Positions 20,517 to 63,812 of a stretch of 64,000 nucleotides of DNA are shown here, in pieces. The notes under the pieces were generated by a model. It did no database searches, was not told where the DNA came from, and saw nothing but the letters and a program-made list of their open reading frames with translations. Origin of the DNA: Actinomycetota bacterium (GTDB taxonomy: Bacteria > Actinomycetota > JBBINU01); NCBI GenBank assembly GCA_037443725.1, contig JBBINU010000005.1, positions 45,334 to 109,333 of the forward strand, in the 5' to 3' direction. Each line of letters starts with the position of its first letter. The stretch's first letter is position 1. A program made the position numbers and the translations under genes.

Positions 20517-20559
20517 GCCCGTAGACGATGGGGGTAAAGGCAGCCGGGACACGCTCCCT

Positions 20560-20588
20560 AGTTTAGGTCGAACACACGTTCGAATCAA
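20560..20588 (-). promoter_or_regulatory. SOS promoter with LexA box in the spacer: TTGATT -35 (overlapping the box by 1 nt), 17-nt spacer of LexA box TCGAACGTGTGTTCGA, TAAACT -10, upstream of dinB
   Basis: Read directly on the minus strand as TTGATTCGAACGTGTGTTCGACCTAAACT. The box matches the Gram-positive/actinobacterial LexA consensus TCGAAC-N4-GTTCGA. Confidence 0.7.
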
Positions 20589-20626
20589 CTCCCGCAAAGG
20601 CCAGCCCGAAGCGGCTTGACCAGCTC

Positions 20627-21220: not shown

Positions 21221-21292
21221 GGAGAGAAGGTTAGAACAGGGCCGGGATCACCGGAAAGAGGTGATCCCGGCCCTGCGTATCGGGGCCGCTGT

Positions 21293-22360: not shown

Positions 22361-22431
22361 ACCGACCTCCCCTCCTATCCTGACCTCCCCTCTCTGGCCA
22401 GCTGCCCCATCCCGCAATCCCTTACCCGCCT

Positions 22432-23022
22432 CTAGCCACCTCCTTTCTCCAGGGCGGGGCCGAGGATCCCCGCCAGCTTCCAGGCAGTCACCTCCAGGGG
22501 TTCCTCGGACGGGGAGAGGGAGTAGGAGATGACCAGGCGTGCCGCGACCTCCAGGACACCCTCGGCCTCACCCCGGGGAAGCCCTGGCCAGGCGTCCAGG
22601 ATCACCGGGAGGAGGGCCCTGGTAGCGGCCTCCGTGATGGGGCCGAGGTCCAGGGTGAGGTGGGGAAGGACCTCTCCGGCCTCACCCCGGAGGAGGGGGT
22701 CAAGGATGGGGTGGCCCCGGAGGCTCCGGAGGGCCTGGAGGAGCCCGGCCTCCAGCAGCTCCCTTCCCTCCTTCCCCCTGACCGCCTGGAGAACGGAGGA
22801 GAGGATCTCCTCCTCGGCATGAATCACCAGAGCCTTCATCAGCCCCTCTCGCGAGCCGAAGTGGCGGTACACGGTCTGCCTTGACACGCCCGCCGCCCTG
22901 GCCACCTCCTCGAGGCTCGTTCCCCGGATACCTCGGGTGCGGAAGAGGAATAGGGCCCTTTCCAGAACCCTCCGGCGGGTCCTGCCTGCCCCACCTCCGC
23001 CCTCCGCGGGTACCCCTGTCAC
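22432..23022 (-). CDS. TetR/AcrR family transcriptional regulator
   Basis: HTH GIRGTSLEEVARAAGVSRQTVYRHFGSREGL. Confidence 0.8.
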   Translation of the reverse strand: MTGVPAEGGGGAGRTRRRVLERALFLFRTRGIRGTSLEEVARAAGVSRQTVYRHFGSREGLMKALVIHAEEEILSSVLQAVRGKEGRELLEAGLLQALRSLRGHPILDPLLRGEAGEVLPHLTLDLGPITEAATRALLPVILDAWPGLPRGEAEGVLEVAARLVISYSLSPSEEPLEVTAWKLAGILGPALEKGGG

Positions 23023-23113
23023 GATACAAATGATACATATAGAGTCAAGTCTGTAAACAAGGTCCCGGGATGGTGGGTGCTAGCCTCGAGTGGCCCCTGC
23101 TGCTCGGGCTCGG

Positions 23114-26100: not shown

Positions 26101-26287
26101 TCACCCCATGCTCCACGCAGGCCCTGGCGAACCGCACCGCACCGAAGAGGGCATCGGTGTCGGTCAACGCCAGTGCGGTGTACCCCATCTCCCTGGCCCT
26201 GGCTGCCAGATCCTCGGGTCTTGCGGCCCCCTCGAACAGGCTCCAGACCGTATGCACATGAAGGTGAGTGAAGGGGAGACCCTTCAT
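23114..26287 (-). CDS. dnaE2: Error-prone DNA polymerase DnaE2 (ImuC)
   Basis: PHP domain LHVHTVWSLFEGAARPEDL, Pol III alpha core. ~1057 aa with no tau-binding tail, under a LexA box. Start at MKGLPFTHLHVH after RBS GGGAGGGGGAA. Confidence 0.85.
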   Translation of the reverse strand: MKGLPFTHLHVHTVWSLFEGAARPEDLAARAREMGYTALALTDTDALFGAVRFARACVEHGVRPIFGAEVSLEGPLGRRWSRPRTCRGGARRVLLLARDERGYVSLSRLLTRIHLSGRARVPSVYPGEAFRASEPEERVGISREELARETEGLVLLAGVWSDVGALLRRDEERRALEAAGAYLEAFGRGSFFLEVSDLMEGEGRKVVRGLLDLARRLGVRAVATNPVHYLLPGDAPLHDLLVAMGKQGPVKLGERRNAEGYLKPLEEMEELFREEPDLLRNAAGLAEELEGGPPLGSKYYPEVEGAEERLVTEVRRGLEGKGLAGVGRYEARASRELEVILSLGYAGYFLTVAEVAREARAMGIRVACRGSAVGSLVCYLLGISEVDPLPSGLLFERFLNPLRPDPPDIDLDVESDRREEVYRRILQLHPGRVAAVAVFETFRVRGAVREAGKALGLPREELARVAESLPNVSPRALGEVVMSLPEVRRANLRSSSWDLLFRLVERLDGVPRQVAMHPSGIALSGGDPCLRAPLTLTAAGIPALQADKDDTEALGFLKLDVIGVRMLSALRHAVSQAERVSGERVDLGCLGDGDPATYALLRSGKTVGCFQLESPGQRNLVTRLKPGNLQELAVEISLFRPGPVRADMVRPYLRRRWGEEPVRYPHPLLRSILAESYGVLVFQEQAMKLISAVAGVSLAEADRIRRRLEREEEREELRRWFFRAGEEEGYEEKVVEEVWESLSAFAAFGFCKAHAVAFALPAYQSAWMKAHHPAAFYAGVLTYEPGMYPRRVVLAEARRAGIPVLPLDINASSREYTAERLPGGAVGLRIGFLHLRGISEAEIAAILEERGRGSFRGLEDFLSRVPRSSVSRPTLEALVRAGAFDEVEGLTEGGGGSGRTRRDLLVFLAEVLERGEASWHPGPLPLGLRPYSPEERVREELNLLGEEISYDLLHLLRPRLNALGDLTPSSLLDRLPPGQRVLVGGVKVMIQTPPTRSGRRVAFLTLDDGDGLVDVAFSGRPLERYAHVIFGSRVLVVAGRVVGEGTFRLVGLEAHPC

Positions 26288-26388
26288 TTCCCCCTCCCGA
26301 GCCCTCCTCCCTGAGCCCTTCCGCACCTGGAGGCCACCTTAGGAGCCGTTCCCCGGTAGCCGGCAGGTCCGGGCGGAGGCCAGACGGC

Positions 26389-28276: not shown

Positions 28277-28927
28277 TCACCCGAGAGGAGGGAGGCCAGC
28301 CAGGAGAGCCCTGACCGCCTCAGCCGGGTCGCGGGCCTCGGCCACGGCCCTCACCACAGCCACCCTCCGCGCGCCCGCCGCAACCACCTCACCGAGGTTC
28401 CCCGGGTCTATCCCCCCGATGGCGAACCAAGGCACCGCCGCCCGGCAGGCCGCATACCGGACGTACTCTAGGCCGGCGGCAGGCCTCCCCGGCTTCGTCG
28501 GCGTCTCCCAGACCGGCCCGCAGGCCACGTAATCGACGGGCTCTTCCGCCGCCCTGGCAAGGTCCTCGGGGGCGTGGGTGGACCTCCCCACGAGGAAGTC
28601 TTCTCCCAGGATCCTCCTAGCCCAGGCCGGCGGGAGGTCCTCCTGGCCGAGGTGCACCCCGTCGGCCCCCGCAGCGAGGGCGAGGTCGGCCCTGTCGTTC
28701 AGGATGAAAAGGGCCCCATGCTCCGCCGCCTCCTCCCGGAAGACCTCGGCCATCTCCAGCACCTCCAAGGCGGAAGCCTCTTTCTCCCTGAGCTGCACCA
28801 CGTCGACCCCGGCTCCCAGGATGGAGTGAAGAAACTCCTTGAGGTCCCCCTTCTCCCGCCGGCCGCCTGTAACCACGTAAAGCCGGGAGCGGGATAGCCT
28901 CTCCCTCCTCCACTCCCCCGACCTCAA
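28277..28927 (-). CDS. thiE: Thiamine-phosphate synthase ThiE
   Basis: LYVVTG...VQLREK...[12 protein letters not shown]...AIGGI. Confidence 0.85.
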
Positions 28928-29128
28928 CTAGCCCCCCGCCACCGGTCTGACTATCTCGAGCCTGTCCCCCTCCTCCAGGATGACCCGGGAGAAGTCCTCC
29001 CTGGCCACAGGCTCCCCGTTCCTTTCCACCGCTACCCACCGGCCCCGAAGTCCCATGGAAATGAGGAACCCCTCGAGGGTTGTCCCCTCCTCAACCTCGT
29101 AGGCTTCGCCGTTGGCGAGGACCTTCAT
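28928..29128 (-). CDS. thiS: Sulfur carrier protein ThiS
   Basis: 66 aa ubiquitin-like protein ending in GG. Confidence 0.8.
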   Translation of the reverse strand: MKVLANGEAYEVEEGTTLEGFLISMGLRGRWVAVERNGEPVAREDFSRVILEEGDRLEIVRPVAGG

Positions 29129-30357
29129 CCTCTCCCGGAAAGGCCCTGAAGAGCTTTGGAAGGGCCTGGCCCGCCCGCGCCCTCCAGCGCCCGGCCAGCC
29201 CCGTTCCCTGAAGGGTCCACCCCGCCCCGCTCCAAAGGAACCCAGTCCTTCCAGACCGGGTCCAGCCCTTCCCTCGCCAGCGCCCGCGCCACCTCGTCGG
29301 CGCTCCTGGTGTCCGCGATGGCGAACTGCTCCTCCGCTTCATCGGGGTGGAGGTAGCCTCCCGGCTCGGTTCGCGAGCCCGCGCTCATCTGGGTCACAGC
29401 CACAAGCGCCAGGCCGTCCCTAAGCTCCGGCCTCTCCCTGGTGGAGAGAACGAGCCCGACATCGGGGAGGAAGATCCGGAGGGCCGCGTGGGCCTGGACG
29501 AACTCGGCGTCCTCCACCGGGTACCTGGGCCCGGGGAACCCGGCCGCGGGCCGGAGGCGGGGCAGGGAGAGGGTGACCTCCGCCCGCCAGTGCCTCTTCA
29601 GAAGGAACCGAGCGTGGGCGGCGAGGGCAAGAACCTCAACCCGCCAGTCCGGGGTTAGCCCAAGGAGAACTCCCAGGCCCACCCGGCGCATCCCGGCCCT
29701 GGTGGCCCGCTCCGGCGCACCCAGCCTCCAGAAGTAGTTCCTCTTGCTCCCCTTCAGGTGATAGGACGCGTAGGCCTCGCGGTCGTAGGTCTCCTGGTAG
29801 ACGACGACGCCGTCGGTCCCGGCCGCAGCCAGCCTTCGATACACCTCCTCCGGCCATGTCTGGGTCTCGATGGAGACGTTGGCGAAGCCGAGGGCGTGAA
29901 CCCTAGCCACCACTTCTTCGAGATAGTCGGGGTTCACCCAGTGGGGCTGCTCCCCGGAGACCAGCAGGATGTGCCTGAACCCCCGCTCGTAAAGGGCTCT
30001 CGCCTCGGCCTCCACCTCCTCGGGGGCGAGGGTCTTTCGGACGATCCCGCGGTTCCAAGCTGAGAAGCCGCAGTACGTGCAGACGCTGGCGCAGTGGTTG
30101 GAAAGGTAGAGGGGGGCGAAGAGCCTCATGGTCCTCCCGAACCTTCTCTCCCTCACCCTGGCAGCCACTTCTGCAAGCTCACCGAGAAGCCGACCGGCCG
30201 CGGGTGAGAGAAGGACCGCGAGGTCGTAAAGGTCGAAAGAGGGCCGAGAAAGAGCCCTCCTCACTCCCTCGGGACCTTCCTTCTCCGCCTGGCGAGCGAG
30301 GCCAACGAGATCCAGGGAGGCGAGGTACTCCTCGAAGGTGTCAGGCAGGGAGGGCAT
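29125..30357 (-). CDS. thiH: 2-iminoacetate synthase ThiH (radical SAM)
   Basis: CASVCTYCGF radical-SAM cluster motif. ThiH/BioB-like fold. Confidence 0.8.
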   Translation of the reverse strand: MPSLPDTFEEYLASLDLVGLARQAEKEGPEGVRRALSRPSFDLYDLAVLLSPAAGRLLGELAEVAARVRERRFGRTMRLFAPLYLSNHCASVCTYCGFSAWNRGIVRKTLAPEEVEAEARALYERGFRHILLVSGEQPHWVNPDYLEEVVARVHALGFANVSIETQTWPEEVYRRLAAAGTDGVVVYQETYDREAYASYHLKGSKRNYFWRLGAPERATRAGMRRVGLGVLLGLTPDWRVEVLALAAHARFLLKRHWRAEVTLSLPRLRPAAGFPGPRYPVEDAEFVQAHAALRIFLPDVGLVLSTRERPELRDGLALVAVTQMSAGSRTEPGGYLHPDEAEEQFAIADTRSADEVARALAREGLDPVWKDWVPLERGGVDPSGNGAGRALEGAGGPGPSKALQGLSGRG

Positions 30358-30363
30358 CCGGAC

Positions 30364-31164
30364 TCACCTCGCAGCCCCGAGCCGCTCCAGGAAACCGTGG
30401 AGAGGGCTGGAGGCTTCTGCCACCTCCTTCTTGGGCGCGAGGCCGGCCAGGTAGGCTGCCCTTCCCGCCTCCACGGCCAGCTTGAAGGCCCGCGCCATCT
30501 CCACAGGATCCCTGGCCACCGCGATGGCCGTGTTCACCAGGACAGCGTCCACCCCCATCTCCATTGCCTCCGCGGCATGGGATGGGGCCCCTATGCCGGC
30601 GTCCACCACCACCGGAACGGTCGCCTGCTCAACTATGACCCTTATCCCGTCCCTGGTGCGGAGCCCCTGGGCCGACCCGATCCAGGAACCCAGGGGCATG
30701 ACAGTGGCGCACCCCACCTCCTCCAGCCTCTTGGCCAGCACCGGGTCGGCCCCTATGTAGGGGAGGACGACGAAACCCTCGGCCACCAACCGCTCGGCCG
30801 CTCTCAGGGTCTCCACCGGATCCGGCAGCAGATATCTGGGTTCCGGGGTCACCTCGAGCTTCACCCAATTGGGCAGGCCCATGGCCCTGGCGAGCCTGGC
30901 TATACGCACCGCCTCCTCGGCGTCCATCGCCCCGGAGGTGTTGGGTAGGACGAGGTACCTCTCGGGATCGATGTACTCAAGGATGTCCGGGCCGGCGGTG
31001 GGGTGGAGATCGACCCGGCGGACCGCCACCGTCACCATCTCCGTGCCCGATGCCTCGAGGGCGTCCTGCATCACCTGGTGAGAGGAGAACTTCCCCGTGC
31101 CCAAAATCAGCCGCGACCGAAAGCTTCTCCCTGCTATGACGAGGGGGTCGTCCCTAGCTCCCAT
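30364..31164 (-). CDS. thiG: Thiazole synthase ThiG
   Basis: [34 protein letters not shown] 31164 follows GGTGAGG. Confidence 0.85.
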
Positions 31165-31251
31165 CCTCACCACCCGCTTCCTCGGCCATTATAGGCGCCC
31201 TACGGTTAACCCACGGGCCAGGGGAGTCCGGGGCCGGAGGAGACCCGGGAC

Positions 31252-31605
31252 CTAAGGCCGGAGGAGGTCGAGACCGCCGAGGATGGCCTCCGCCCTTTCC
31301 ATCTCAGCCATAACCCAGGCAGCATCGGGCCTGCCGCGGGCGTCGGCGGGCGGGAAAAGGAGAAGAGAGTCGGGGTCCGCGGAGGTGGCCAGGCCCCTGC
31401 TCCGCAGGTAGTCTCCGAGGGAGAACTCCCAGCTGAAGAGGGCCTCACCAGACCTGGTCAGGTGGACGAAGTAGACGAGATAGGGATTTAACCTCATGGC
31501 GTACCTCCAGCCACGCCTCCCCTCCTCCACCAGCCGGAACCCGAGCGCCTCCAGGGCTTTATGGAACTCATCCCAGCCCTCCGGAGCCCTCCTCCCGAAA
31601 GGCAC
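31252..31605 (-). CDS. Hypothetical protein
   Basis: 117 aa ORF with normal composition (YLVYFVHLTRSGEALFSWEFSLGDYL), upstream of thiG on the same strand. No family recognised. Confidence 0.35.
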   Translation of the reverse strand: MPFGRRAPEGWDEFHKALEALGFRLVEEGRRGWRYAMRLNPYLVYFVHLTRSGEALFSWEFSLGDYLRSRGLATSADPDSLLLFPPADARGRPDAAWVMAEMERAEAILGGLDLLRP

Positions 31606-36745: not shown

Positions 36746-37387
36746 GTGAGAGTGGAACTTCAAGAGGCGAGGGGGCGAATACCCCCGGGACAGTACGTCA
36801 GCCAGAAGTGGCCCGTTCTCCACGTGGGACCCGTCCCGCCTTTCGACCCGGGCCGCTGGGACCTCAAGGTCTTCGGGCTTGTGGAAGAGGAGCTGGTCCT
36901 GGGGTGGGAGGAGTTCTCGCGCCTGCCCAGGAAGAAGGTGCTGGCGGACTTTCACTGTGTCACGCGTTTCAGCGTTCTCAACAACCTCTGGGAAGGGGTG
37001 AGTAGCCGGACCTTGCTGGAACTGGCCCGTCCGAAGGCCACGGCCAGGCACGTCCTCGTCTGGGCCGAGTACGGGTACAGCGCCAACCTAACCCTCGAGG
37101 ACTTCCTCCGCGACGATGTTCTCTTCGCCCTCAGGAGAAACGGGGAGCCCCTTTCTCCGGAGCACGGCGGACCCGTGAGGCTCGTGGTTCCCCACCTCTA
37201 CGCCTGGAAGAGCGTGAAGTGGGTGAGGGGTGTCGAGGTCCTGGAGGAGGAAGTTCTCGGGTACTGGGAGGCGAGAGGCTACCACCGCCGCGGGGACCCC
37301 TGGGCTGAGGAGCGGTTCGCTCTAGCTCCCGTGCCGCCCATGAGGGCGAGGGTATGGAGGAGAGGGGGCGGACCCCTCCAGGGGTGA
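36746..37387 (+). CDS. Sulfite-oxidase-family molybdopterin-binding domain protein (YedY/MsrP-like)
   Basis: PPGQYVSQKWPVLHVGPVP, DFHCVTRFS (Mo-ligand Cys), LRRNGEPL, HLYAWKSVKWV. Confidence 0.7.
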   Translation: MRVELQEARGRIPPGQYVSQKWPVLHVGPVPPFDPGRWDLKVFGLVEEELVLGWEEFSRLPRKKVLADFHCVTRFSVLNNLWEGVSSRTLLELARPKATARHVLVWAEYGYSANLTLEDFLRDDVLFALRRNGEPLSPEHGGPVRLVVPHLYAWKSVKWVRGVEVLEEEVLGYWEARGYHRRGDPWAEERFALAPVPPMRARVWRRGGGPLQG

Positions 37388-37638: not shown

Positions 37639-38670
37639 ATGGTCGTGGTGATGCAGCCCGGAGCAGGAGATGAGGATATCGCCCGTGTCGTGAGAACCGT
37701 TGAGGAAGCTGGCGGTGAGGCCTTCGTCTCCCGCGGTAAGCAGAGGACCATCATAGGACTGGTGGGCGAGACCCAGACCTTTCTCTCCCTGCCTCTCCAG
37801 GCCCTTCCCGGGGTCGAGAGCGTGGTCCAGATAGGGCGGCCGTACAAGCTGGTGAGCGCCGAGTCGCACCCCGAGCCCAGCAGCATCCACGTCGGAGGGG
37901 TTGAGATCGGAAGACGGGGCTTCACCCTCATCCTCGGTCCCTGTGCCGTGGAGTCCGCCGAGCAGACCCTGGAGAGCGCCCGGATGGCCAAGGAGGCCGG
38001 AGCCCACATCCTGAGGGGTGGCGCATACAAGCCCCGCACCTCACCCTACACTTTCCAGGGTCTCGGACGGGACGGCCTTGAGATCCTCGCCGCAGCCAGG
38101 GAGGAGACGGGACTCCCCTTTGTCACTGAGGTTCTCGAGACAAGGGATGTAGAGCTCGTTGCAAGCTACGCCGACATGCTCCAGGTGGGGGCCAGGAACA
38201 TGCAGAACTTCAGCCTTCTCAAGGAAGTGGGGCGGTCCGGGAAGCCCGTCCTGCTGAAAAGGGGGTTCTCCAACACCATCGAGGAGTGGCTGCTGGCCGC
38301 CGAATACATAGCGCAGCAGGGGAACCTCCAGATCGTCCTCTGCGAGAGGGGGATCAGGACCTTCGAACCCTCCACCAGGAACACCCTGGACATTTCCGCG
38401 GTGCCGGTGGCCCAGTCCCTCTCTCATCTGCCTGTGGTGGTGGACCCTTCCCACGCTTCAGGGAAGAGGGCCTTGGTGCCGCCTCTGGCGCGGGCGGCGG
38501 TGGCCGCCGGAGCAGACGGGGTGATGATAGACATCCACCCCGAGCCAACCCGAGCCCTGGTGGATGGGGCGCAGGCCCTCAGCGGGGAGGAGGCCAAGAG
38601 GCTCGCCCAGGACCTCCAGCTCCTCGCCGCCCTCCTCGGCCGGAGCACGGAGACGAGGGTGAGGGCCTAA
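37639..38670 (+). CDS. aroG: 3-deoxy-7-phosphoheptulonate (DAHP) synthase, type I-beta with N-terminal regulatory domain
   Basis: Strong RBS GGAAGGGAAAGGGGGAAAC before ATG. KPRTSP, LPFVTEV, GARNMQNF, VVDPSH motifs. N-terminal ~60-aa ferredoxin-like domain. Confidence 0.85.
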   Translation: MVVVMQPGAGDEDIARVVRTVEEAGGEAFVSRGKQRTIIGLVGETQTFLSLPLQALPGVESVVQIGRPYKLVSAESHPEPSSIHVGGVEIGRRGFTLILGPCAVESAEQTLESARMAKEAGAHILRGGAYKPRTSPYTFQGLGRDGLEILAAAREETGLPFVTEVLETRDVELVASYADMLQVGARNMQNFSLLKEVGRSGKPVLLKRGFSNTIEEWLLAAEYIAQQGNLQIVLCERGIRTFEPSTRNTLDISAVPVAQSLSHLPVVVDPSHASGKRALVPPLARAAVAAGADGVMIDIHPEPTRALVDGAQALSGEEAKRLAQDLQLLAALLGRSTETRVRA

Positions 38671-40118
38671 AGGTCTTCCCGCCCAGGGGCGGCTCCCCCC
38701 CTAGGCGCCGGGGCCGCGCCCTCCGGGAAGGTCGGCGCCTCCCCCGCCCTCGGGGAACCGAGGAGGTCAAGGAGGACAAACTCGGTGTCCGCCCCCGCCG
38801 GCCGACACACCCACTTCAGCCTCGGGGGCGTCTCACTCATCTTGGCCGGAAGCCCTGGGAGAAGGAGCTCCCCGTAGGTGGGGTCCGTCACGCGCAGGAG
38901 GGCTCCCCGCTCGTACCAGTGGGAAAGGCGGGAGGTCTCCATGGGCGTGAGGACCTCTCCGCAGACGGTGACCCCCGGGCCCCGATAGGCGTTCCAGATA
39001 GCCACCAGCTCCTCCCTGGTCCTCTCCATGGTGAACTTCTCTATCTCCCTCACGATCTCTACGACGGCCGCGGGGTCCGTCCGGGAAGACACCGTGGGAA
39101 ACCGGTCCACCAGGTCCGGCCGGCCGATTATCTCGCACAGAGCCTTCCAGTTGGCATCTGTGTAGCCGGCGAGGAAGACCATCCCGTCCTTACACCTGAC
39201 GTAGCAGTACGGATGGGCGGCGGGCTCCACATTCCCCGGTCTCTCCATCACCTCCCCCGAGATGTGGTAGTAGGGGAGGGCATAGTTGTTCAGGCACATA
39301 AGGGCCTCGGCAGGGCTCAAGTCTATGGCCTGCCCCTCCCTGCTCTCCTCGCGCCAGAGGAGGGCAGCCATCACCGCCAGGGCGCCGAAGACCCCGCCCG
39401 CGTACCAGGCGAGCCAGTTTCCCATCCTCGTGGGCACCCTCGCTTCCTCGGGAAACTCGGTGTACTCTGCGGGGAGGCCCGTGGTGTGAACGAAGCCGCT
39501 GGCGGCCTGGGTCACGGTGTCGCTGCAACTCCATCCGGCCCGCCCAGCAACCTCCGCCAGAGGACCCTCCTGGCCGAAGGTGTGCAGCGAGAGGTAGATG
39601 AGCCCGGGGTTTAGCGCCTTGAGATCCTCGTAGCCGAGCCCCCGCGAGGCCATGCTCCCGGGAGGTTCCGTCTCCACCAGCACGTCCGCCCGGGCCGAGA
39701 GGGCGCGGAGGGTCGCCCGATCCCTTTCCTCCTCAAGGTCAAGAACGATATGCTCCTTGTTCCTCCCCTCCACCAGGTAAGCGAGCCCCGTCCCCCCCAC
39801 CTCCATCCCCTCGGGGCTGAAGAAACGGGCCGGGTCGCCCCCGGGAGGCTCGACCCTCACCACTCTCGCCCCGAACTCCGCCAGGAGACTGGAGCAGAAA
39901 AGGCCCGCGTAGCTCGAGCGGGAGACATCAAGCACGAGGATTCCCTCGAGGGCCTCGGGCTTCTCCCGCGCTGCCTGGGGAGCTGTGGCCTCCCGGGCCC
40001 AGTCCGACCAGCTCACCTCTGACCCTCCTCCAGAACCTCCGTGCCCTCCCGGAAGAAAAGCCCCCTCTTCCCATCCCAGTCCGGAGGGGGCGAAGCGAAG
40101 GGGAGTGCCGGATCCCAC
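38667..40118 (-). CDS. CoA-transferase family III (CaiB/BaiF-like)
   Basis: GILVLDVSRSSYAGLFCSSLLAEFGARVVRVEPPGGD signature. 5' end overlaps the next gene, so the true start is probably an internal GTG. Confidence 0.8.
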   Translation of the reverse strand: MGSGTPLRFAPSGLGWEEGAFLPGGHGGSGGGSEVSWSDWAREATAPQAAREKPEALEGILVLDVSRSSYAGLFCSSLLAEFGARVVRVEPPGGDPARFFSPEGMEVGGTGLAYLVEGRNKEHIVLDLEEERDRATLRALSARADVLVETEPPGSMASRGLGYEDLKALNPGLIYLSLHTFGQEGPLAEVAGRAGWSCSDTVTQAASGFVHTTGLPAEYTEFPEEARVPTRMGNWLAWYAGGVFGALAVMAALLWREESREGQAIDLSPAEALMCLNNYALPYYHISGEVMERPGNVEPAAHPYCYVRCKDGMVFLAGYTDANWKALCEIIGRPDLVDRFPTVSSRTDPAAVVEIVREIEKFTMERTREELVAIWNAYRGPGVTVCGEVLTPMETSRLSHWYERGALLRVTDPTYGELLLPGLPAKMSETPPRLKWVCRPAGADTEFVLLDLLGSPRAGEAPTFPEGAAPAPRGGAAPGREDL

Positions 40119-41335
40119 CTACCCACCACACCCTCCCGGTACAGCTCATCCACCTCCTGGGGGGAAAGGCCCAGAATCTTTCGCAGGACGTACTCGTTGT
40201 CGAAGCCGACGGGCCTTATCGACCAACGGATCCTGCCAGGGGTGGCCCCGAGCCTGAGAGCAAAGGGAAGGACGAGATCGCCCCAGAGGGGGTCCTCGAA
40301 GAACCAGACCGCCCTCCTGGATCTAAGGTGCTCGCTGGAGTGGAGGTCCCGGGCATCCATGACCTTGGATACGGAGAAGCCGTGCTGCCGCGCTGCGGCT
40401 TCCAGCTCGGCCAGGGTTCTCCGCCGGGCCCAGTCTTCAAGGCCCTCGTATATGAGGTGAGCCTTGGCTGTTCTCAGCCGGTAAGGTGCCAGGGGCAGGA
40501 GGTCCTCCCTGCCCATGGCACGGCAGAGGCCCTGGAACTCCTTCTCCTCCAGGGCACCCACGGCCACGAAGGCATCGGCCGCTCGCACCACGGCCCCCAC
40601 CACGGCAGCCAGGTCGCGATTGCCAGATCTCGCCCGGTTCCTGCCCGTGAGGCCAAGGAATGGCCAGGTCCAGTCCATGCAGCGGAGGAGGACCTCGGTC
40701 TGGGCAAGATCGATGAACTGACCCTTACCCGTCCGCCTCCTCCACACCAGGGCCACCAGAGCAACAAAGGCAGCATAGGTTCCCGCAAGGAAATCCCCTA
40801 TCCAGGCCGAGGACTTGACACCGACGGCTCCGGGAAACCCTGTGATCTCGGCGAGCCCCGTCACCCCCTGGGCGTAAGCGTCGTAACTCGGCCGGTCCGA
40901 AAGGGGACCCCAGTTCCCGAAGCCGCTCATGCTCACGTAGATGAGGTCGGGACGGACGGCCCGGAGCTGCCGGTAGCCGATGCCCCACGAGTCAAAGGTT
41001 CCCGGCTTGAAGTTTTCGAGCAGAATGTCGGAGCGGAGGGCGAGCCTCCGCACCAGGTTCACGCCCTCGGGCTTCCGGAGATCGATGGCGACGAAGTACT
41101 TGTTGGCGTTGGCGCAGAGAAGCCCGGAGGAGATGTTCCGTGGGAGCTTCCCCCGGGGGGCCACCGGCCTCACCAGCACGTCCCCGGCGCCCGGAAGCTC
41201 CACATGGATCACCTCCGCCCCGAGCTCGGCGAGGAGGGTCCCGGCCCACGGGCCGTAGATGACCCTGGTGATGTCGAGAACCCGAACGCCCCGCAGGGCT
41301 TCGGGCCGCACCGTCTCTCCGCCTGGCTCCGACAT
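40013..41335 (-). CDS. CoA-transferase family III (CaiB/BaiF-like), paralog
   Basis: VRVLDITRVIYGPWAGTLLAELGAEVIHVELPGAGD signature. Confidence 0.8.
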   Translation of the reverse strand: MSEPGGETVRPEALRGVRVLDITRVIYGPWAGTLLAELGAEVIHVELPGAGDVLVRPVAPRGKLPRNISSGLLCANANKYFVAIDLRKPEGVNLVRRLALRSDILLENFKPGTFDSWGIGYRQLRAVRPDLIYVSMSGFGNWGPLSDRPSYDAYAQGVTGLAEITGFPGAVGVKSSAWIGDFLAGTYAAFVALVALVWRRRTGKGQFIDLAQTEVLLRCMDWTWPFLGLTGRNRARSGNRDLAAVVGAVVRAADAFVAVGALEEKEFQGLCRAMGREDLLPLAPYRLRTAKAHLIYEGLEDWARRRTLAELEAAARQHGFSVSKVMDARDLHSSEHLRSRRAVWFFEDPLWGDLVLPFALRLGATPGRIRWSIRPVGFDNEYVLRKILGLSPQEVDELYREGVVGRWDPALPFASPPPDWDGKRGLFFREGTEVLEEGQR

Positions 41336-41388: not shown

Positions 41389-41802
41389 TCAACGGATGGA
41401 ACCACCCTCTTCCAGCACCTCCTGGGGAAGGAGAATAAGGGGAGCCATGCCGCACACCTGCGGGAACCGGTGGGGGTTGTAGGTGAGAAGGGGCAGGGAA
41501 CCAAGGAGGGCGGTGGCCGCCGTTGCCGCGTCCACCAGGTCCACGCGATACCCCTCCGCCCAGGCCGCCCGGAGGTACCGGGCAGCCAGCCTTGCCTCCT
41601 CCCCGCCGACGGGGAGAACACCGAGCCTGGCGAGGAGGGATGCCGCCTCCCCCCTCTCCCTCTCCTCCACCGCCCTCTCCACCTCGAGGAGGGCCAGAGC
41701 GCTCACTGCGGGCTCCAGCCCGGGGTGAAGGAGGATCTCCCTCGCCCTCCCCCTTCCCCGCACCCCCCAGAGGACGGAGATCCAGTCGAGAAGGACCTTC
41801 AT
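41389..41802 (-). CDS. vapC: PIN-domain protein (VapC-like toxin)
   Basis: KVLLD (N-terminal Asp), E in LEVE, DLVDAATAATA, TYNPHRF. No adjacent antitoxin ORF. Confidence 0.65.
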   Translation of the reverse strand: MKVLLDWISVLWGVRGRGRAREILLHPGLEPAVSALALLEVERAVEERERGEAASLLARLGVLPVGGEEARLAARYLRAAWAEGYRVDLVDAATAATALLGSLPLLTYNPHRFPQVCGMAPLILLPQEVLEEGGSIR

Positions 41803-42773: not shown

Positions 42774-43943
42774 CTAGCAGTGGGTGAGGCGGTGGAGGGG
42801 AGTCTTCGTCGGGTCGGGAACGAGATACCAGTAAGCGCGGTTGAAGGCCCACTTGGCGGCGTGCCAGAGGAAGCTAGGCCGGGGCGGCCTGGGAGGGTTC
42901 TCGTAATCGAACTGGAGGATGGTGGCCCTGCCGCCGCCCGTCTCCAGAAAACAAGTGACCTTGCCGGAGTAAATGGCCCTGCCCGGAGTGGGAGCCCTCC
43001 CCTCCACCTCCGCCACGATCTGCTCGGCCACTACGGGCACCTCGAAGTGGGCCGTGGAGCCGCTCTTCGAGATGGGGAGGTTGGTTGCATCCCCAAGGGC
43101 GAACACATTCTCCGCCCCCGCCACCCTGAGGGTGTGCCTGTCCACGGGAACCCATCCCCCATCCTCCCCCAGCCCCGACTTCTCCACCACGGCTGCCCCC
43201 CGGTGGGGAGGGACGAGGACGGCCAGATCGAACGGGAAGACCTCGCCCTCCAGGGAGAGGAGCTCTCCCTTGCTCGCGTCGACGGACTCCACGTTCACGA
43301 AAGTGTGGAGGACTATCCCCTTTGCCTCCATGATGGGCTGAACGAGGCGGGATGCGCTCTCGATGGTGAAGGCCCTGTTAAGAGGGGAGAGGAAGTGGAT
43401 CTCCGTCTTCTCCCTCACTCCCCGCTTCGAAAGATAGTCGTGGAGCATGAGCACAAACTCCACGGGAGCCGGCGGGCACTTGTAAGGTAGGCCCGCCACC
43501 CCCACCACGATCTTGCCCCCCTTGAACCGGCGGAGGGCCTCTCGCAGTCGCTGGGCGCCGTCCAGGGAGTAGAAGTCGTGGGCACCCTCGGAAAGCCCCG
43601 GGACCTCCTCCCTTACGATCCGGGAACCCGTGGCCAGCACGAGGTAGTCATAGGGAAGGGAACCGCCCCTGGCCAGCCTCACCAGCCCGGCGGAGGCATC
43701 CACATGGACCGCCTCCTCCACCACCAGCTCGACCTCCTTCCGGAGGAGGCGGCGCTCGTCCCGGGTGAGCCACCGGGCATCCGCCTCGTCCAGAGCGACG
43801 TAGAGGTAGCCCGGCTGATACACGTGCATACCCGTGGAGTCGACCACCGTCACCTCGGCCCTGCCACGGAGCCGGCAGGCAAGCAGGTTCGCGAGGAGAG
43901 TTCCACCCACACCACCGCCTAGGATGACAACACGGGCAGCCAT
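42774..43943 (-). CDS. FAD-dependent pyridine-nucleotide-disulfide oxidoreductase, sulfide:quinone oxidoreductase-like
   Basis: VVILGGGVGGT FAD motif. KCPPAP and VTCF cysteines positioned like SQR redox cysteines. Adjacent to tusA and dsrE. Confidence 0.65.
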   Translation of the reverse strand: MAARVVILGGGVGGTLLANLLACRLRGRAEVTVVDSTGMHVYQPGYLYVALDEADARWLTRDERRLLRKEVELVVEEAVHVDASAGLVRLARGGSLPYDYLVLATGSRIVREEVPGLSEGAHDFYSLDGAQRLREALRRFKGGKIVVGVAGLPYKCPPAPVEFVLMLHDYLSKRGVREKTEIHFLSPLNRAFTIESASRLVQPIMEAKGIVLHTFVNVESVDASKGELLSLEGEVFPFDLAVLVPPHRGAAVVEKSGLGEDGGWVPVDRHTLRVAGAENVFALGDATNLPISKSGSTAHFEVPVVAEQIVAEVEGRAPTPGRAIYSGKVTCFLETGGGRATILQFDYENPPRPPRPSFLWHAAKWAFNRAYWYLVPDPTKTPLHRLTHC

Positions 43944-43945
43944 GG

Positions 43946-44185
43946 CTACCTCGCCTTCCTCACCACGAACCGGGCGTACCCCTCCTCCTCGACCACGCCC
44001 ACCAGCTCGTGCCCGGCCTTCTCCACCCAGGCCGGTATGTCCTTCTTGGACCCGGTGTCAGAGGAGAGGACCGCTATCACCTGCCCCACCTCTGCCGACC
44101 TCACGGCCCTGATCAGCTCCATGAGGGGTCCAGGGCAGTGGGACCCGCGGGCGTCTATTTCCTTGTCTACCTTGACGTCGATGGC
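43946..44185 (-). CDS. tusA: TusA-like sulfurtransferase
   Basis: 79 aa with the CPGP motif (IDARGSHCPGPLMEL). Confidence 0.75.
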   Translation of the reverse strand, partial: AIDVKVDKEIDARGSHCPGPLMELIRAVRSAEVGQVIAVLSSDTGSKKDIPAWVEKAGHELVGVVEEEGYARFVVRKAR

Positions 44186-44220
44186 CATCTCATCCTCCCT
44201 TCGCCCTCCCGCGAAAGCCC

Positions 44221-44637
44221 TTACACGAACAGAACCTGCCCTCCCTGGGACGTCTCTATAAAGGAGGCCACACCGGTGACCTCGTCCACTACGTCCTCCA
44301 GGTCCTCCATCTTCAGGCCCATGAGGTCCATGGCCATGGCGCAGGCGTACACCTTCACCCTCCCCAGATCCTTCGCCTGACGAAGCACCTCCAACCAGGA
44401 GGGCACCTTCTTCTCCTCCATGAGCTTCGCCAGGTTCGACCCTTCCTGCCCATAATCGGAGGAGATGTGGCGCCACTTCCGGTGGGCGTCCTTGCGGAGC
44501 GCGGCCAGGCCCCAGAAGGTGAAGAAGAGATTGGTCTCGACCCCCATGGCGGCCGCCCCGCTGGCGATGATGGAGACGGCCGCGAGCCGGTCCAGGGTAC
44601 CCGAGAAGACCACCACGGAAAGCTTGGCGGCGGACAT
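44221..44637 (-). CDS. DsrE/DsrF-like sulfur relay family protein
   Basis: 138 aa DsrE-fold. KVYACAMAMD conserved Cys. RBS AAAGGAGG. Confidence 0.7.
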   Translation of the reverse strand: MSAAKLSVVVFSGTLDRLAAVSIIASGAAAMGVETNLFFTFWGLAALRKDAHRKWRHISSDYGQEGSNLAKLMEEKKVPSWLEVLRQAKDLGRVKVYACAMAMDLMGLKMEDLEDVVDEVTGVASFIETSQGGQVLFV

Positions 44638-44668
44638 AGTTCCTCCTTTCGTGATCTCTCTCTCTTGA

Positions 44669-44688
44669 CTTACCGATGCTATGGTAAG
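44669..44688 (-). promoter_or_regulatory. Inverted repeat CTTACC-N8-GGTAAG upstream of the dsrE-tusA-sqr operon (candidate operator)
   Basis: Perfect 6-bp arms, 32-51 nt upstream of the dsrE start. Confidence 0.4.
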
Positions 44689-44831
44689 GCTCTGGGCGAT
44701 TGCGCGGGAGATTCAAAAGAATCGTTTCTCTTATCCCAAGGGGTGGTCTTCGCCGCTCCCCTTCCGACCGGTCCCCGCCCAAAAGGGTGGGATGAAGACC
44801 CGCGACGCGGGGCCTGAGGCTCCCCGGTCCG

Positions 44832-45482
44832 CTAGGCTCCAGGTCCCTCCCCCTGCCTAGGAGGCAGGAGCCCGTCCTTTACCGCCTTCGCTACTGCCTC
44901 CGCCCGCGTCCTCGCCTGGAGCTTGGCCATGATGTTCCGGAGGTGATACTTGACAGTGTTCTCGGAAATGAAAAGGCGCCTCGCTATCTCGGGGTTTCTG
45001 GCTCCTTCAGCCACCAGGGCCAGGACCTTCCTCTCGGCCTCGGTCAGCCCTCCCCTCTCTCTCGGCCCCCGGACAAATTCCTCGAGAAGTCTCCCGGCCA
45101 GAGCCCTGGAGACGGCCACCTGCCCGGTGGCCACAGCCTCGAGGAGCTCGAAGAACTCCTCGGCCCTGGCGTTCTTGGATATGTATCCCTTCGCCCCAGC
45201 CCTCACGGCTTCCACCAGGGCCTCCTCATCCTCGACCACGGAGAGCATCACCACCTTAAGATCCGGGTGCGTCTCGAGGAGCTGACGGACGGCCTCGATT
45301 CCCCCCATCCCCGGCATCTTCACGTCCATGAGAACCACATCCGGCCGGGCCTGCGGGACCAGTTCCAGAGCCTCCTCGCCGGTGGAGGCTTCTCCCACCA
45401 CCTGGTACCCCTCTCTGGTCTCGAGAAGACTGGCGATGCCCCGTCTCACCAGAACGTGGTCGTCTACGATGAAAACCCTCAT
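44832..45482 (-). CDS. NarL/LuxR-family response regulator
   Basis: Receiver domain (DDH...D...K) plus LuxR HTH (LTEAERKVLALVAEGARNPEIARRLFISENTVKYHL). Confidence 0.85.
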   Translation of the reverse strand: MRVFIVDDHVLVRRGIASLLETREGYQVVGEASTGEEALELVPQARPDVVLMDVKMPGMGGIEAVRQLLETHPDLKVVMLSVVEDEEALVEAVRAGAKGYISKNARAEEFFELLEAVATGQVAVSRALAGRLLEEFVRGPRERGGLTEAERKVLALVAEGARNPEIARRLFISENTVKYHLRNIMAKLQARTRAEAVAKAVKDGLLPPRQGEGPGA

Positions 45483-47344
45483 CCCCCCACCGCCCGAGCC
45501 ACCCTGACCCTAACAACGCAGCCGGCGCGGGGAGCCGAGACCACCTCCAGCGCCCCGCCTGCCGCCCGCGCTCTTTCCCTCATCCCCCTGAGCCCCATGC
45601 CCTCCTTCACCCCTTGAGGATCGAAACCCTCCCCCTCGTCCTTGATCTCAAGGAGAGCCGAGGACCCCTCGGACTCGAAAAGGACGGTCACCCTCCGCGC
45701 CCTTCCGTGCCTCACGGCATTGGAGACGGCCTCCTGCACGATCCGGAAGAGGTGGAGCTCGGCGGCGGGGGGCAGGCCAGGCCAGTCTTGTTCAACCACC
45801 TCCAGCTCTACCGTCCCCATGCGCTCCAGGCGCTGGCCGTACTGCCGCACGGTCTCCACCAGGCCCCTGGATCCCATGGTTCCCGCCAGCTCGAGCCCGA
45901 GGATAGCCTGGCGCAGCTCCTTCCCGGCCTCCTCGGCAGCTCGCGCTGCCTCCTCGAGCTGCAGGTATGCCCTCTCCGACTGCCCTGAGCTTAACCACTC
46001 CCTTGCCGCCTGAACCTTCATGCTCATGAAGGCGAGGACCTGCGCGAGACCGTCGTGGAGCTCCCTGGCGATCCTCTCCCTCTCCTCCGCTGCGGAGAGG
46101 GCCTCGGCCAGAGAGAGGAGGCGAGCATTGGCAAGGGCCACCGAGGCGAGGGGGGCCATCCGCTCCACCAAAAACACCTCCTCATCCTGGAACCGGGCGG
46201 GGCGGAGCTTCCCCACACAGAGGGAGCCCAGGACCTCCCCCCCGACCTCGAGAGGGACAGCCACCTCCTCACAGCCCACCCCCGGTCGGGCTTCACCCTC
46301 CGCCGTCACGAGCCGCCCGGTGCGAAAGGCCTCCTCCCCGGCGAGCAACCCCGGCCTGTACCCTGCCTCCATGGCCTCCTTCACGCTGCCGGACCCCGCC
46401 CGGGGAACCAGGCGCCCCTCCTCCTGGATGAGGACGACGGCTCCGTCAGCCCTCGCCAGGACTCTGACCCTCTCGGCTATCTCGGCCAGGGTGGTCTCCA
46501 GCCTTTTCACGGCCGCCACGTCCATGGCTGCCTCGTAGAGCGCCTCCAGCGCCTCGGTCCTCTCCCTCACCCTCTCCTCCAGCACCTGGCTCAAGGCCTC
46601 CGCCTCCCTCCTGGCCTGCTCTTCCCTCGCCAGAGCCCTGGCCATGGTCTCCTCCACCTCCCGGCCCTTCTCCCTGCCGAAGGCCACCACCGTGGAGAAG
46701 GAGGCCGCCGCAACACCCAGACCCGTGAGAGCGGTGAGCGGAGCGAGGCGGCCCGCCGGGATCCTCAGGGCAGATACTCCAGGGCCCGTTACGAAGAGGG
46801 CCAAGAAACCGTCGGCAAGGAAGGCGAGCCCCGAGAGGCGAGCCATCCTCTCCCATCGCGCCGATCCCCTCCTGGCAAGCAGGGAAAGGCCGGCAAGGGA
46901 AGCGCCGGGAAAGTAAAGAAGAACCCGGCCTGCCAGGTCGCCCTGGGCGACCCAGGCGAGGAGCCCACTCCCCCCGACCAGCGCCCCGAGTCCACCCAGA
47001 GCCCAGATGATAAAAACGGCAGCCGGGATGAATCTCACCGCCCTGGCCAAGGCCTCCCTGGGCGAGAGGTCCGCGTACACCTCGGCGCCGAAGATAGCCA
47101 TGGCCAGGCTAGAGGCTGATGCCAGGGTTCCCGCCGCAAGGGCTAGGGCTGGCCGCTGACTCCCCCACGCCCAGGCCAAGGCCGCCGACCACCTGGCCGC
47201 AGCTCCAAGAAAGCCCGCCGCTGCCAGCCAGGGCAGCCGTCTTCCAAGCCCCATCTCCCCCGCGAAGGGAAAGGATCGGACCAGCACCGAGGTGACCCCC
47301 AGCACGAGGAAAGAAGCACCCGCTGTCACGTCCCAGATGGGCAC
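45479..47344 (-). CDS. Sensor histidine kinase (membrane domain + GAF + HisKA_3/HATPase)
   Basis: ERERIARELHDGLAQ H-box. C-terminal ATPase. N-terminal polytopic membrane region. Confidence 0.8.
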   Translation of the reverse strand: MPIWDVTAGASFLVLGVTSVLVRSFPFAGEMGLGRRLPWLAAAGFLGAAARWSAALAWAWGSQRPALALAAGTLASASSLAMAIFGAEVYADLSPREALARAVRFIPAAVFIIWALGGLGALVGGSGLLAWVAQGDLAGRVLLYFPGASLAGLSLLARRGSARWERMARLSGLAFLADGFLALFVTGPGVSALRIPAGRLAPLTALTGLGVAAASFSTVVAFGREKGREVEETMARALAREEQARREAEALSQVLEERVRERTEALEALYEAAMDVAAVKRLETTLAEIAERVRVLARADGAVVLIQEEGRLVPRAGSGSVKEAMEAGYRPGLLAGEEAFRTGRLVTAEGEARPGVGCEEVAVPLEVGGEVLGSLCVGKLRPARFQDEEVFLVERMAPLASVALANARLLSLAEALSAAEERERIARELHDGLAQVLAFMSMKVQAAREWLSSGQSERAYLQLEEAARAAEEAGKELRQAILGLELAGTMGSRGLVETVRQYGQRLERMGTVELEVVEQDWPGLPPAAELHLFRIVQEAVSNAVRHGRARRVTVLFESEGSSALLEIKDEGEGFDPQGVKEGMGLRGMRERARAAGGALEVVSAPRAGCVVRVRVARAVGG

Positions 47345-62193: not shown

Positions 62194-63630
62194 ATGTTCA
62201 GGCTCGTCCCAAGGCAAAATCGTGGTGGGCTTCTCTTCGCCATCGCTGCCGCTGCGATGAGCATTTTCTCAACAGAACCCACTATAGAAGCTGCAAACAT
62301 CGGCGTCCTGCCCACGATTCCTGCCGTGCGGGAGTGGATCCCGTCAAGAGGAGTCTTCGATCTCCCCCCTCACCCACGAGTCGTTTTCTGGGGAGCGCCA
62401 GCATTACGGGACGTAGCAGAGGTGCTCGCGGACGACCTGCGCGAGCTAGCGGGCATCCGTGCTGACCTCGTCGCAGGCCCTCGCCCCGGCCCTGGGGACG
62501 TATTCCTCGCTGTCGACCCCCACCTCAATCTCGGTTCTGAAGCCTACCAGCTCGAAATTGGGAGCTATGTGAGAATAACGGCCCGAGCAGAGCGGGGCAT
62601 CTTCTACGGAACTCGTACGCTCCTCCAGTTACTGCACCAAAGCCGCCAACTGCCCGCTGGTCGGGTGCGAGACTGGCCACGCTACCCGGAGCGTGGGCTC
62701 ATGCTTGACGTTGCCAGGAAGTTCATATCACCGGGTTCGATCAAAGACGTCGTGCGCGAGCTTGCCTACTTCAAGTTGAACTATCTGCACCTTCGCCTTT
62801 CGGACAATGAGGGTTTTCGCATAGAAAGCAACAGCCATCCTGAGATCGTATCAGAGCAGCACTTGACCAAAGACGAAGTCCGGGGAATCATAGAGTTCGC
62901 AAACCGATATCACGTCATTGTGGTGCCTGAGATCGACATGCCCGGCCATATGGGAGCTGCCCTGGCACCCCATCCTGAGCTACAGCTTCGCAATGCGCTC
63001 GGTCAGCCCGCACAGGACAAGCTAGACGTCACAAATCCAGCAGCCTTACGTTTCGCCCACGAAATCTTGGACGAACTTATTGCCCTTTTCCCGGGGCCCT
63101 ACTGGCACGCAGGGGCAGACGAGTACATGCCCTTAGCTGAGTACCCGCTTTACCCGAGTCTGCGAGAATATGCTCAAGCCAAGTACGGACCGGTGTCCGA
63201 CCCGAAAGATGCGGTGCTCGACTTTATCAACTGGGTCGACCAGGTGGTACGCACCCACGGCAAGACCTTGCGCGTCTGGAACGACGAACTCGGCGGCGGC
63301 CGGGCGGCAAGACCAAACCCCAGCATCATTGTTGAATGGTGGACAAACTTCAGCCCCCTTTCTGATCCCGCCCCGCCCGGACCGCGGAAGCTCCGATGCC
63401 AGGAAAGAAGAGGACCTCTTGCTGGAAATCGCCCCCAGACTCCGGGTCATTGCCCAGAAGACCTGGGAGTCACCTCAGCCGTCCTACCCGGAGTTCATGA
63501 ACAGATCGGAAAAAGTGGGCCACGCGCCGGGCGCGCGCATATTTGGGAGGCCTGCCACCGGGGCTGCCTGGCTAGCTGGGGAAGACAGGCGGAAGACTCC
63601 AGAGCGGCAGTCACTACCGGCGACAGGTAG
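62194..63630 (+). pseudogene. Beta-N-acetylhexosaminidase (GH20) with signal peptide; 3' end frameshifted
   Basis: HLRLSDNEGFRIES, VVPEIDMPGHMGAA GH20 catalytic region. After ~63390 the frame degenerates, and a GH20-like C-terminal block (PRLRVIAQKTWES) appears in another frame (ORF 63170..63709). Lower GC than the rest of the window. Confidence 0.6.
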
Positions 63631-63812
63631 CTCCCTCCCAGTCCCCCTCCTTATGGCGTTACTCGCCGCCCCAGCCTTTAGCGCCTTGCTCAAGCGGCAA
63701 AGCAGCTGAGGGCATCCGTTCTGGCAGCTTAGCTGCGGGCGTCCGCCGAGCTGTCCTCCCCCGGGCTAGAAAAGCCCCGCGTCTGCAGCATAAGCAACCT
63801 AAGATTGTAGCC

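Follow-up and report, generated by a model that had tools for sequence, protein, structure and literature searches.

The window analysed here, a stretch of 64,000 nt from contig JBBINU010000005.1 of an Actinomycetota bacterium, carries genes for a DsrE2B-type sulfurtransferase, the sulfur carrier TusA and a predicted sulfide:quinone oxidoreductase of type III (SQR), preceded by the genes of a sensor histidine kinase (HK) and a NarL/FixJ-family response regulator (RR). With moderate confidence, dsrE2B-tusA-sqr is seen as a sulfide-detoxification and sulfide-respiration operon that a dedicated two-component system, with its genes immediately upstream, controls. In the working of the system that we propose, SQR would act as a monotopic flavoprotein at the cytoplasmic membrane face, oxidise H2S, transfer the electrons via flavin adenine dinucleotide (FAD) to the quinone pool and build sulfane sulfur on Cys156 and Cys331. 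TusA (Cys19) and DsrE2B (Cys99) would receive this sulfur in the form of protein persulfides and pass it on into the cytoplasm. HK would phosphorylate the NarL-type RR, and an RR dimer bound to the inverted repeat CTTACC-N8-GGTAAG in the 194-nt gap before dsrE2 would set the transcription of the operon, by activation or by repression. The most likely signal, sulfide or sulfane sulfur, would be perceived by HK in its cytoplasmic GAF domain via a conserved cysteine pair, and the polytopic membrane domain of HK would be a lineage-specific accessory.

Probable linkage of the two-component system to the sulfur operon

All five genes (HK, RR, dsrE2, tusA and sqr) are located on the minus strand, at the coordinates given by the initial annotation, which had described a compact DsrE-like/TusA/SQR-like operon with a GAF-histidine kinase and a NarL-type regulator directly upstream on the same strand. 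Both parts of this description were recovered (Table 1). HK combines HisKA_3 and HATPase_c domains and is paired with a regulator consisting of a receiver and a GerE-type helix-turn-helix domain, the composition of a NarL/FixJ two-component system; the best matches of RR were NarL, MadR and DevR, with DevR as the best solved structure. The HK and RR genes overlap by 4 nt. The public gene call of HK (P0123) comprises 602 aa and starts 19 codons later than the 621-aa version with the GTG start. Intergenic distances of 29 nt between dsrE2 and tusA and of 2 nt between the tusA stop and the sqr start make the three genes look like a single transcription unit.

The main argument for a functional link between HK/RR and the operon is the recurrence of the five-gene order in a second genome. 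The closest homologue of RR, P0227 with 64% identity, is encoded in the Actinomycetota metagenome-assembled genome GCA_041658225.1 in the context GGDEF protein, GAF-HisKA_3 kinase, RR, a gap of 139 nt, DsrE2, TusA, SQR, TusA and DsrE2 (L023, L024 and L025). Between the window and L024, the identities were 46% for the cytoplasmic part of HK (over 380 aa, E 2e-94), 55% for DsrE2, 61% for TusA and 65% for SQR, and the flanking genes otherwise differ. As far as the conserved order indicates, the link of kinase and regulator to the sulfur operon is probably real, and the upstream position seen in the initial annotation recurs with orthologous proteins. The HK orthologue in L024 was reached only via P0227: among 5.8 billion proteins no close relative of HK was found, the next best having 34% identity over 57% of the query, outside the membrane domain. 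The next best RR homologues, at 55% identity, were rejected as orthologues, their genes going with that of a dCache kinase and preceding a cytochrome oxidase operon. For P0124, the contig breaks off short of any target gene.

Table 1. Features of the sulfur locus, with positions in the window
Feature	Position	Strand	Remarks
Sensor histidine kinase (HK)	45479..47344	minus	621 aa, GTG start; Pfam domains
NarL/FixJ-family response regulator (RR)	44832..45482	minus	Response_reg and GerE (helix-turn-helix) domains
RR-dsrE2 gap, 194 nt	44638..44831	minus	presumed promoter/operator region for dsrE2-tusA-sqr
Block conserved with the L024 gap	44740..44773	minus	25/36 positions identical to L024
Perfect inverted repeat CTTACC-N8-GGTAAG	44669..44688	no strand	candidate RR binding site
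Shine-Dalgarno AAGGAGG	44642..44648	minus	read from the sequence; 4 nt upstream of the dsrE2 ATG
DsrE2B-type sulfurtransferase, 138 aa	44221..44637	minus	PF13686, PDB 2QS7 match
TusA sulfur carrier, 81 aa	43946..44191	minus	PF01206, CPGP motif
Predicted SQR (sulfide:quinone oxidoreductase) of type III, 389 aa	42774..43943	minus	NF049943, Cys156 and Cys331

Homologous modules are accompanied by regulators of other families. L013 and L016 (SQR P0016, with a Chloroflexota label) have an ArsR-family (HTH_5) gene that diverges from the operon and is itself followed by TusA and OsmC genes, and in L016 the palindrome GATATGCG-N6-CGCATATC with 8-bp arms lies between the ArsR-family gene and the operon. 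L006 and L009 have a CsoR-family gene downstream of the cluster and, upstream of dsrE2, the sequence TACCCTGGGGGGTA, a classical CsoR-type operator (TACCC..GGGGGTA). Other loci had no obvious regulator adjoining. In the window, no CsoR/ArsR-family regulator was found by regular expressions and hidden Markov models (HMMs) on the six-frame translation of the 64 kb, even at E 10, and HMMs built from L006/L009/L013/L016-type proteins detected no CsoR/ArsR-like open reading frame (ORF) in L024 (18.6 kb). As positive control, the identical searches recovered the CsoR/ArsR regulators in L006, L009, L013 and L016. The presence of these regulators elsewhere and their absence from the window argue that the position beside the module is a regulator slot, its occupant varying by lineage and being, as it appears, a two-component system here. 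Persulfide-sensing repressors of the CstR/SqrR/BigR type control sqr, tusA and dsrE-type genes and are encoded beside the homologous operons of L006, L009, L013 and L016; these are one-component, cysteine-based repressors, whereas the window has a phosphorelay instead. The contrast to such repressors drawn by the initial annotation was thus borne out, homologous modules carrying CsoR/ArsR-family regulators and the window neither of them.

Motifs resembling the DosR box, GGGACC-N4-GnCCC, were observed upstream of dsrE2 in L001 (~7160-7175), L006 (~1630-1645), L008 and L009, of which L001 and L008 are labelled Acidimicrobiia. DevS/DevR-like pairs together with CBS-domain and USP genes occur within 3-6 kb of some SQR loci (e.g., L001, L004, L018, L022). 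Judged by these motifs, the SQR modules that carry them in Actinomycetota-type loci might be members of a DosR-like regulon.

Sensor kinase and candidate signal

HK possesses about seven hydrophobic (transmembrane) segments within aa 1-225, followed by a coiled coil, a GAF domain (aa 282-404), HisKA_3 and HATPase_c. The N-terminal polytopic domain is outside any Pfam family, and a search of 1.84 billion representatives yielded just two weak relatives for it; of the two, P0346 (627 aa) presents the full HK architecture at 28% identity. The L024 kinase has one hydrophobic segment versus about seven, with short loops, in the window, and what the two proteins share is limited to the coiled coil (REAEALSxVLExRVRxRTEALEAL), a single GAF domain and the core of the kinase. 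The only cysteines of HK outside the ATPase domain are Cys358 and Cys376. Both are kept in the two SQR-linked kinases, those of the window and of L024, and not in L026, L044, P0125 and P0127; the strand pattern predicts that they should lie close together on adjacent strands of a β-hairpin. Residues 270-415, with the single GAF domain, contain no histidine, and a PAS domain was not found in HK with Pfam. Similarity of the GAF domain to GAF-A of DevS was marginal (C-terminal third, E 0.03).

To our knowledge, bacterial sensing of sulfide or sulfane sulfur is known almost only via one-component cysteine repressors (CstR, SqrR, BigR). A precedent for two-component control is NreBC of Bacillus licheniformis MW3 (yrkD...nreB-nreC-sqr-pdo), where a HisKA_3 kinase and a NarL-family regulator, encoded immediately upstream of sqr-pdo on the same strand as in the window, sense sulfide, and NreC, once phosphorylated, binds in the gap that precedes sqr and increases transcription (PMC9918477). 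For 12 of 454 sqr-pdo operons, two-component genes were located no more than three genes away (PMC9918477). In view of this precedent (PMC9918477, PMC13478379), the different sensing logic that had been ascribed to the window's two-component system was overstated. The mechanism of NreB involves a PAS domain with a three-cysteine [2Fe-2S] cluster (PMC13478379). Unlike the soluble NreB, HK has about seven transmembrane helices and one GAF domain with two cysteines; the absence of a PAS domain and this GAF composition exclude an NreB-type Fe-S site. The targets differ as well, NreBC controlling sqr-pdo, a type II-style detoxification set, in the presence of the CstR-like repressor YrkD, and the window containing dsrE2B-tusA-sqr(III) without a repressor encoded nearby. 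A GAF-HisKA_3 kinase and a NarL-family regulator also form DosS/DevS-DosR of Mycobacterium tuberculosis, in which DosR binds a 20-bp palindrome; DosS has been reported to respond to H2S and to bind it through heme (PMC9062744). Unlike the membrane-bound HK with its one histidine-free GAF domain, DosS is soluble, has two GAF domains and ligates heme via a histidine, and the Dos box (GGGAC..GTCCC) is unrelated to CTTACC..GGTAAG. DosS/DevS-type heme ligation was excluded, as the single GAF domain of HK is free of histidine. By its gene order and domains, the window system appears to share the logic of NreBC but neither of the known sensor modules, of NreB or DosS, and to control a different gene set.

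Our preferred guess for the signal is sulfide or sulfane sulfur, perceived via the GAF cysteine pair. A thiol response to sulfane sulfur is suggested because two sequences share the pair, and by analogy to the cysteine-based sensors. Going further, and held only tentatively, HK may be a previously undescribed reactive-sulfur sensor, in which Cys358 and Cys376 of a histidine-free GAF domain would become persulfidated or sulfane-bridged and switch the HisKA_3 kinase. In that case, a phosphorelay would have acquired the thiol chemistry of CstR and SqrR and taken the place of those repressors at the type III SQR operons of some Actinomycetota, with an RR family reading CYTACC..GGTARG.

It is possible, though we consider it unlikely, that HK/RR controls the operon and senses a respiratory or redox cue, i.e., oxygen, the redox state of the quinone pool or the membrane status via the seven-helix domain, and that the SQR module belongs to a respiration or hypoxia regulon. 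RR is nearest to DevR/DosR among solved structures, the ATPase domain of HK matches DevS and DosT, and the DevS/DevR-like pairs, CBS-domain and USP proteins near several Actinomycetota SQR loci point in the same direction. A related, palindrome-bearing system (L026) controls a ferredoxin/GltD-like oxidoreductase, the RR relatives with 55% identity precede the cytochrome oxidase operon, and a polytopic membrane domain could read the quinone pool that is fed by SQR. However, the orthologous L024 kinase is devoid of the membrane domain, the GAF domain lacks a histidine for heme binding of the DosS type besides its marginal similarity to GAF-A of DevS, and the sole experimentally studied pair in this position senses sulfide (PMC9918477). 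If the signal were redox rather than sulfur, the locus would simply be another respiration-linked two-component system. If sulfur is sensed, the window locus and its orthologue would present a third candidate design beside the experimentally supported kinase sensors NreB (Fe-S PAS) and DosS (heme GAF). With a GAF cysteine pair, a defined target operon and a candidate operator, the system is directly accessible to tests in vitro. The exchange of regulators at the DsrE2B-TusA-type III SQR module between lineages may help to predict the onset of sulfide oxidation in uncultured Actinomycetota and Chloroflexota.

Candidate operator in the intergenic gap

The repeat CTTACC-N8-GGTAAG has no other match in the window and spans -51 to -32 from the dsrE2 ATG. 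Alone, it is no more than chance: 45% of shuffles of the 194-nt gap contain a perfect repeat whose arms measure 6 bp and whose spacer is 0-14, and the gap itself contains three such repeats; a spacer of exactly 8 was obtained in 5% of the shuffles. Its credibility comes only from the comparison with related loci. In L024, GACCTACCC-GAAC-GGGTAGGTC is positioned 46 nt past the RR stop codon, before DsrE2-TusA-SQR. L026, with an RR of 52% identity, has TTCTACCC-GAAT-GGGTAGGTC between the RR gene and the next gene, the target being the ferredoxin/GltD-like oxidoreductase, and L044, with an RR of 48% identity, has CCTACC-TGAGTC-GGTAGG at the RR stop codon, the target gene being without Pfam match. 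The relaxed motif YTACC-N6-8-GGTAR matched 8 times in 805 kb (5.8 expected), and 4 of the 8 matches are in the ~700 nt directly after these RR genes, where fewer than 0.01 would be expected by chance (estimated from the 805-kb figures). This clustering favours a putative protein site for the RR subfamily, and a sequence-specific binding site of its members would be the simplest explanation for the recurring half-site. The palindromic operator of the initial annotation was thus retained in part: the repeat is perfect and its half-site recurs in three related systems, but taken by itself the repeat lacks significance, and in spacing it departs from those systems by 2 bp. In the window, CTACC-GGCGACA-GGTAG (63614-63632) is a second match to the relaxed half-sites, situated at or just past the end of a 532-aa ORF.

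NarL-type 7-2-7 operators consist of two inverted TACYYMT heptamers 2 bp apart (E. coli consensus). The repeat can be read in this layout as TACCATA-GC-ATCGGTA, with TACC at both outer ends; the inner heptamers match the consensus poorly (4/7 and 6/7), and the related loci have a 7-0-7 layout. Besides the repeat, the conserved block 44740-44773 aligns with positions 9694-9729 of L024, which comprise the L024 palindrome and its downstream flank. Within the block, AAGACCACCCCT matches L024 over 12 nt, of which 11 nt, AAGACCACCCC, were confirmed by exact search, and a degenerate copy of the L024 palindrome precedes AAGACCACCCCT.

A sigma-70 consensus promoter was not found on the coding strand of the gap. 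The AAGGAGG Shine-Dalgarno sequence argues for a leadered dsrE2 mRNA. RNA folding of the gap was no better than that of shuffles (z = 0.01), and a riboswitch or attenuator in the gap was dropped for this reason. One terminator-like site was detected, inside the HK gene; Rfam families and tRNAs were not found. A perfect complementarity of 10 nt exists between GAAGACCACC (44742-44751) and dsrE2 codons 8-11 (44605-44614). This pairing, if on one transcript, could enclose the ribosome-binding site; since it is absent from L024, it is probably due to chance.

Rather improbable is the alternative that the palindrome is not the site of RR, being instead bound by a repressor encoded elsewhere (e.g., of CsoR/CstR type) or forming a hairpin that ends the HK-RR transcript, and that HK/RR regulates other genes. 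The L024 sequence TACCC-GAAC-GGGTA is very similar to CCTACCC-TGGG-GGGTAGG, the CsoR-type operator that precedes dsrE2 in L009, the window and the other loci do not have equal spacing, and the L044 palindrome overlaps the RR stop codon, as expected of a terminator hairpin. Another binder is opposed by the lack of a CsoR/ArsR-like ORF in the window and in L024, and the window spacer ATAGCATC is without the C/G tracts of CsoR sites. A hairpin of only 6 bp with a loop of 8 nt and no U tract, in a region without excess folding, would make a poor terminator, and termination gives no reason for a common sequence across systems whose proteins are only 48-64% identical.

Beyond the chance level of the repeat, several findings weigh against a dedicated two-component system acting through this site. 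The distance between TACC and GGTA is 8 bp in the window versus 6 bp in L024, L026 and L044, a different geometry for a rigid dimer. The counterpart of the L024 palindrome in the window, in the block 44740-44773, is degenerate, and the perfect palindrome is found 50 nt further downstream. The related palindrome-bearing systems control non-sulfur targets, so that the RR family is not sulfur-specific. The repeat, only 32-51 nt from the start codon and separated from it by a strong Shine-Dalgarno sequence, is likely to overlap the leader or the core promoter, a position that fits repression better than classical activation. The argument from the cysteine pair has n=2, and the HK-RR-operon synteny is known from two lineages only. 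A profile of the two kinases led to 80 metagenome loci with more distant kinases, none of which (0/80) had DsrE2, TusA or SQR, and the RR homologues at 55% identity belong to the dCache kinase/cytochrome oxidase system.

As evidence, the adjacency of HK/RR and the operon in a single genome, amid many co-oriented genes, is weak. Adjacency and repeat could be coincidental, a housekeeping signalling pair standing beside a constitutively expressed sulfur module. Co-orientation carries little weight, as all neighbours for over 10 kb share the strand and are functionally unrelated, the repeat is expected in nearly half of the shuffles, and most SQR loci have no adjoining two-component system. We consider this quite improbable in view of the five-gene order with orthologous proteins in a second genome with otherwise different flanks, and of the conserved 11-nt element and the common half-site in the gaps of both the window and L024.

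Sulfur genes and their neighbourhood

The flavoprotein is best explained as a type III SQR, judged by the best curated family and both catalytic cysteines. Pyr_redox_2 (PF07992) matched residues 4-289 with 77.8 bits, and the N-terminus carries a GxGxxG-type motif of an FAD-binding Rossmann fold (VVILGGGVGG, residues 5-14). By far the best NCBIfam model was NF049943 for type III SQR (350.8 bits, E 9e-105, 350 residues), a score below the model cut-off of 525 bits, which is set for the selenocysteine (Sec)-containing selenoprotein subtype. Human SQOR was the top relative among solved structures (E 2e-36), followed by other SQRs and flavocytochrome c sulfide dehydrogenases (FCSD). Cys156 (lpyKCppAP) and Cys331 (kvtCfletg) aligned to vKCagAP and ytsCplvtg (phmmer versus 8dhk and 6mp5), the positions of the redox cysteines Cys201 and Cys379 of human SQOR; the canonical pair of type III enzymes is numbered Cys159 and Cys339 (PMC13047784). 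Homologues were numerous, 5901 at E<=1e-20 among 8000 candidates scored, and JGI gives the name SQR to many of the 120 best listed. Quinone reduction with sulfide has been shown for type III enzymes according to PMC10205796, which refers to its references 53 and 54. That the protein is another pyridine-nucleotide-disulfide oxidoreductase, such as a CoA-disulfide reductase or NADH oxidase, with the persulfides on TusA and DsrE2 as its substrates, is highly improbable: the score below the cut-off and the absence of a type III enzyme among the solved structures would allow for it, but CoA-disulfide reductase models reached only ~30 bits, the top structures are all SQR or FCSD, with one (3h8i) deposited as 'NADH oxidase', both SQR cysteines are in position, and the JGI names and the reported sulfide-driven quinone reduction agree with SQR. 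An N-terminal signal peptide was not evident on SQR by eye, and the C-terminal tail, FLWHAAKWAFNRAYWYLV, is aromatic and looks amphipathic. Beyond this tail, the last residue of SQR is a cysteine (...HRLTHC); BLAST alignments to relatives end earlier, at query residue 376-383.

TusA matched the full profile of PF01206 with 85.5 bits and has Cys19 within HCPGP, in agreement with the CPxP motif. With the E. coli TusA equivalog model the score was 50.9 against a cut-off of 78, which places the protein as a predicted family member rather than an E. coli-type orthologue. The DsrE-like protein (PF13686, 99 bits) contains a single cysteine, Cys99 in VYACAMAMD, which is conserved in the L024 DsrE2 paralogues. 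It reached 57.4 bits with the NCBIfam model SulfCarrDsrE2, the equivalog of Allochromatium DsrE2A, below the cut-off of 210. Residues 4-138 aligned end to end with PDB 2QS7 (E 3e-39), named as Saccharolobus DsrE2B (PMC11094781), including the cysteine-bearing ACxxxM stretch. Unlike in the window, DsrE2B of Saccharolobus solfataricus is encoded with dsrE3A-tusA near hdr genes and has no SQR partner.

The order DsrE2-TusA-SQR was kept in 10/10 of the closest SQR loci from species-representative genomes (62-69% SQR identity), with TusA identities of 59-68% across all ten, and 7/10 have a second TusA-DsrE2 pair after SQR. Their labels are mostly Actinomycetota, Actinomycetes and Acidimicrobiia; three are labelled 'bacterium' and one Candidatus Velamenicoccus archaeovorus. 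Six further SQR contexts contained the module in five cases, each with a second TusA-DsrE2 pair, the SQR of L015 being without annotated TusA or DsrE2. In Methylacidiphilum fumariolicum SolV, the operon MFUM_v2_0219-0221 encodes the identical set of gene products, type III SQR, TusA and DsrE2, as compared by gene content; it was up-regulated 1.7-fold in sulfide-adapted cells and is proposed to oxidise H2S to sulfur, feeding electrons into respiration (PMC10205796). Unlike for the window, no two-component system is reported beside this operon, and its induction is modest. Hence dsrE2B-tusA-sqr(III) is a known, widespread and already recognised module. The initial annotation was right in describing the genes as a compact unit, and the persulfide-generating and relay function that it proposed is reasonable; newness cannot be claimed for it.

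The genes around the locus are functionally unrelated to sulfur: an acyltransferase, alpha/beta hydrolases, a PIN protein, two CoA-transferases and a DAHP synthase, those over more than 10 kb all being co-oriented with the locus. The tandem family III CoA-transferase genes (38667-41335, minus strand) overlap by ~100 nt when the ORFs are taken from the first start codons, one start being probably over-extended, and are followed by the PIN-domain gene (41389-41802). The plus strand codes, 5.4 kb from SQR, for a protein of 213 aa whose molybdopterin domain (PF00174) is of the sulfite oxidase family (36746-37387); it may handle sulfite or have no relation to the locus. A thiamine biosynthesis cluster on the minus strand (28277-31605) consists of thiE, a ThiH-like radical SAM gene and thiG; despite this cluster, neither a thiamine pyrophosphate riboswitch nor any other Rfam family exceeded the gathering threshold across the 64 kb. 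The gene content speaks for an Actinomycetota-like genome, as does the best RR hit: the window has the dcw cell-division cluster (267-15927), a DUF3040 gene, a PASTA kinase and Ku. The Ku gene is clustered at 18407-26326 (minus strand) with those of a DinB-type polymerase, an AurF-like di-iron oxygenase together with its TetR regulator, and a polymerase alpha subunit of DnaE type.

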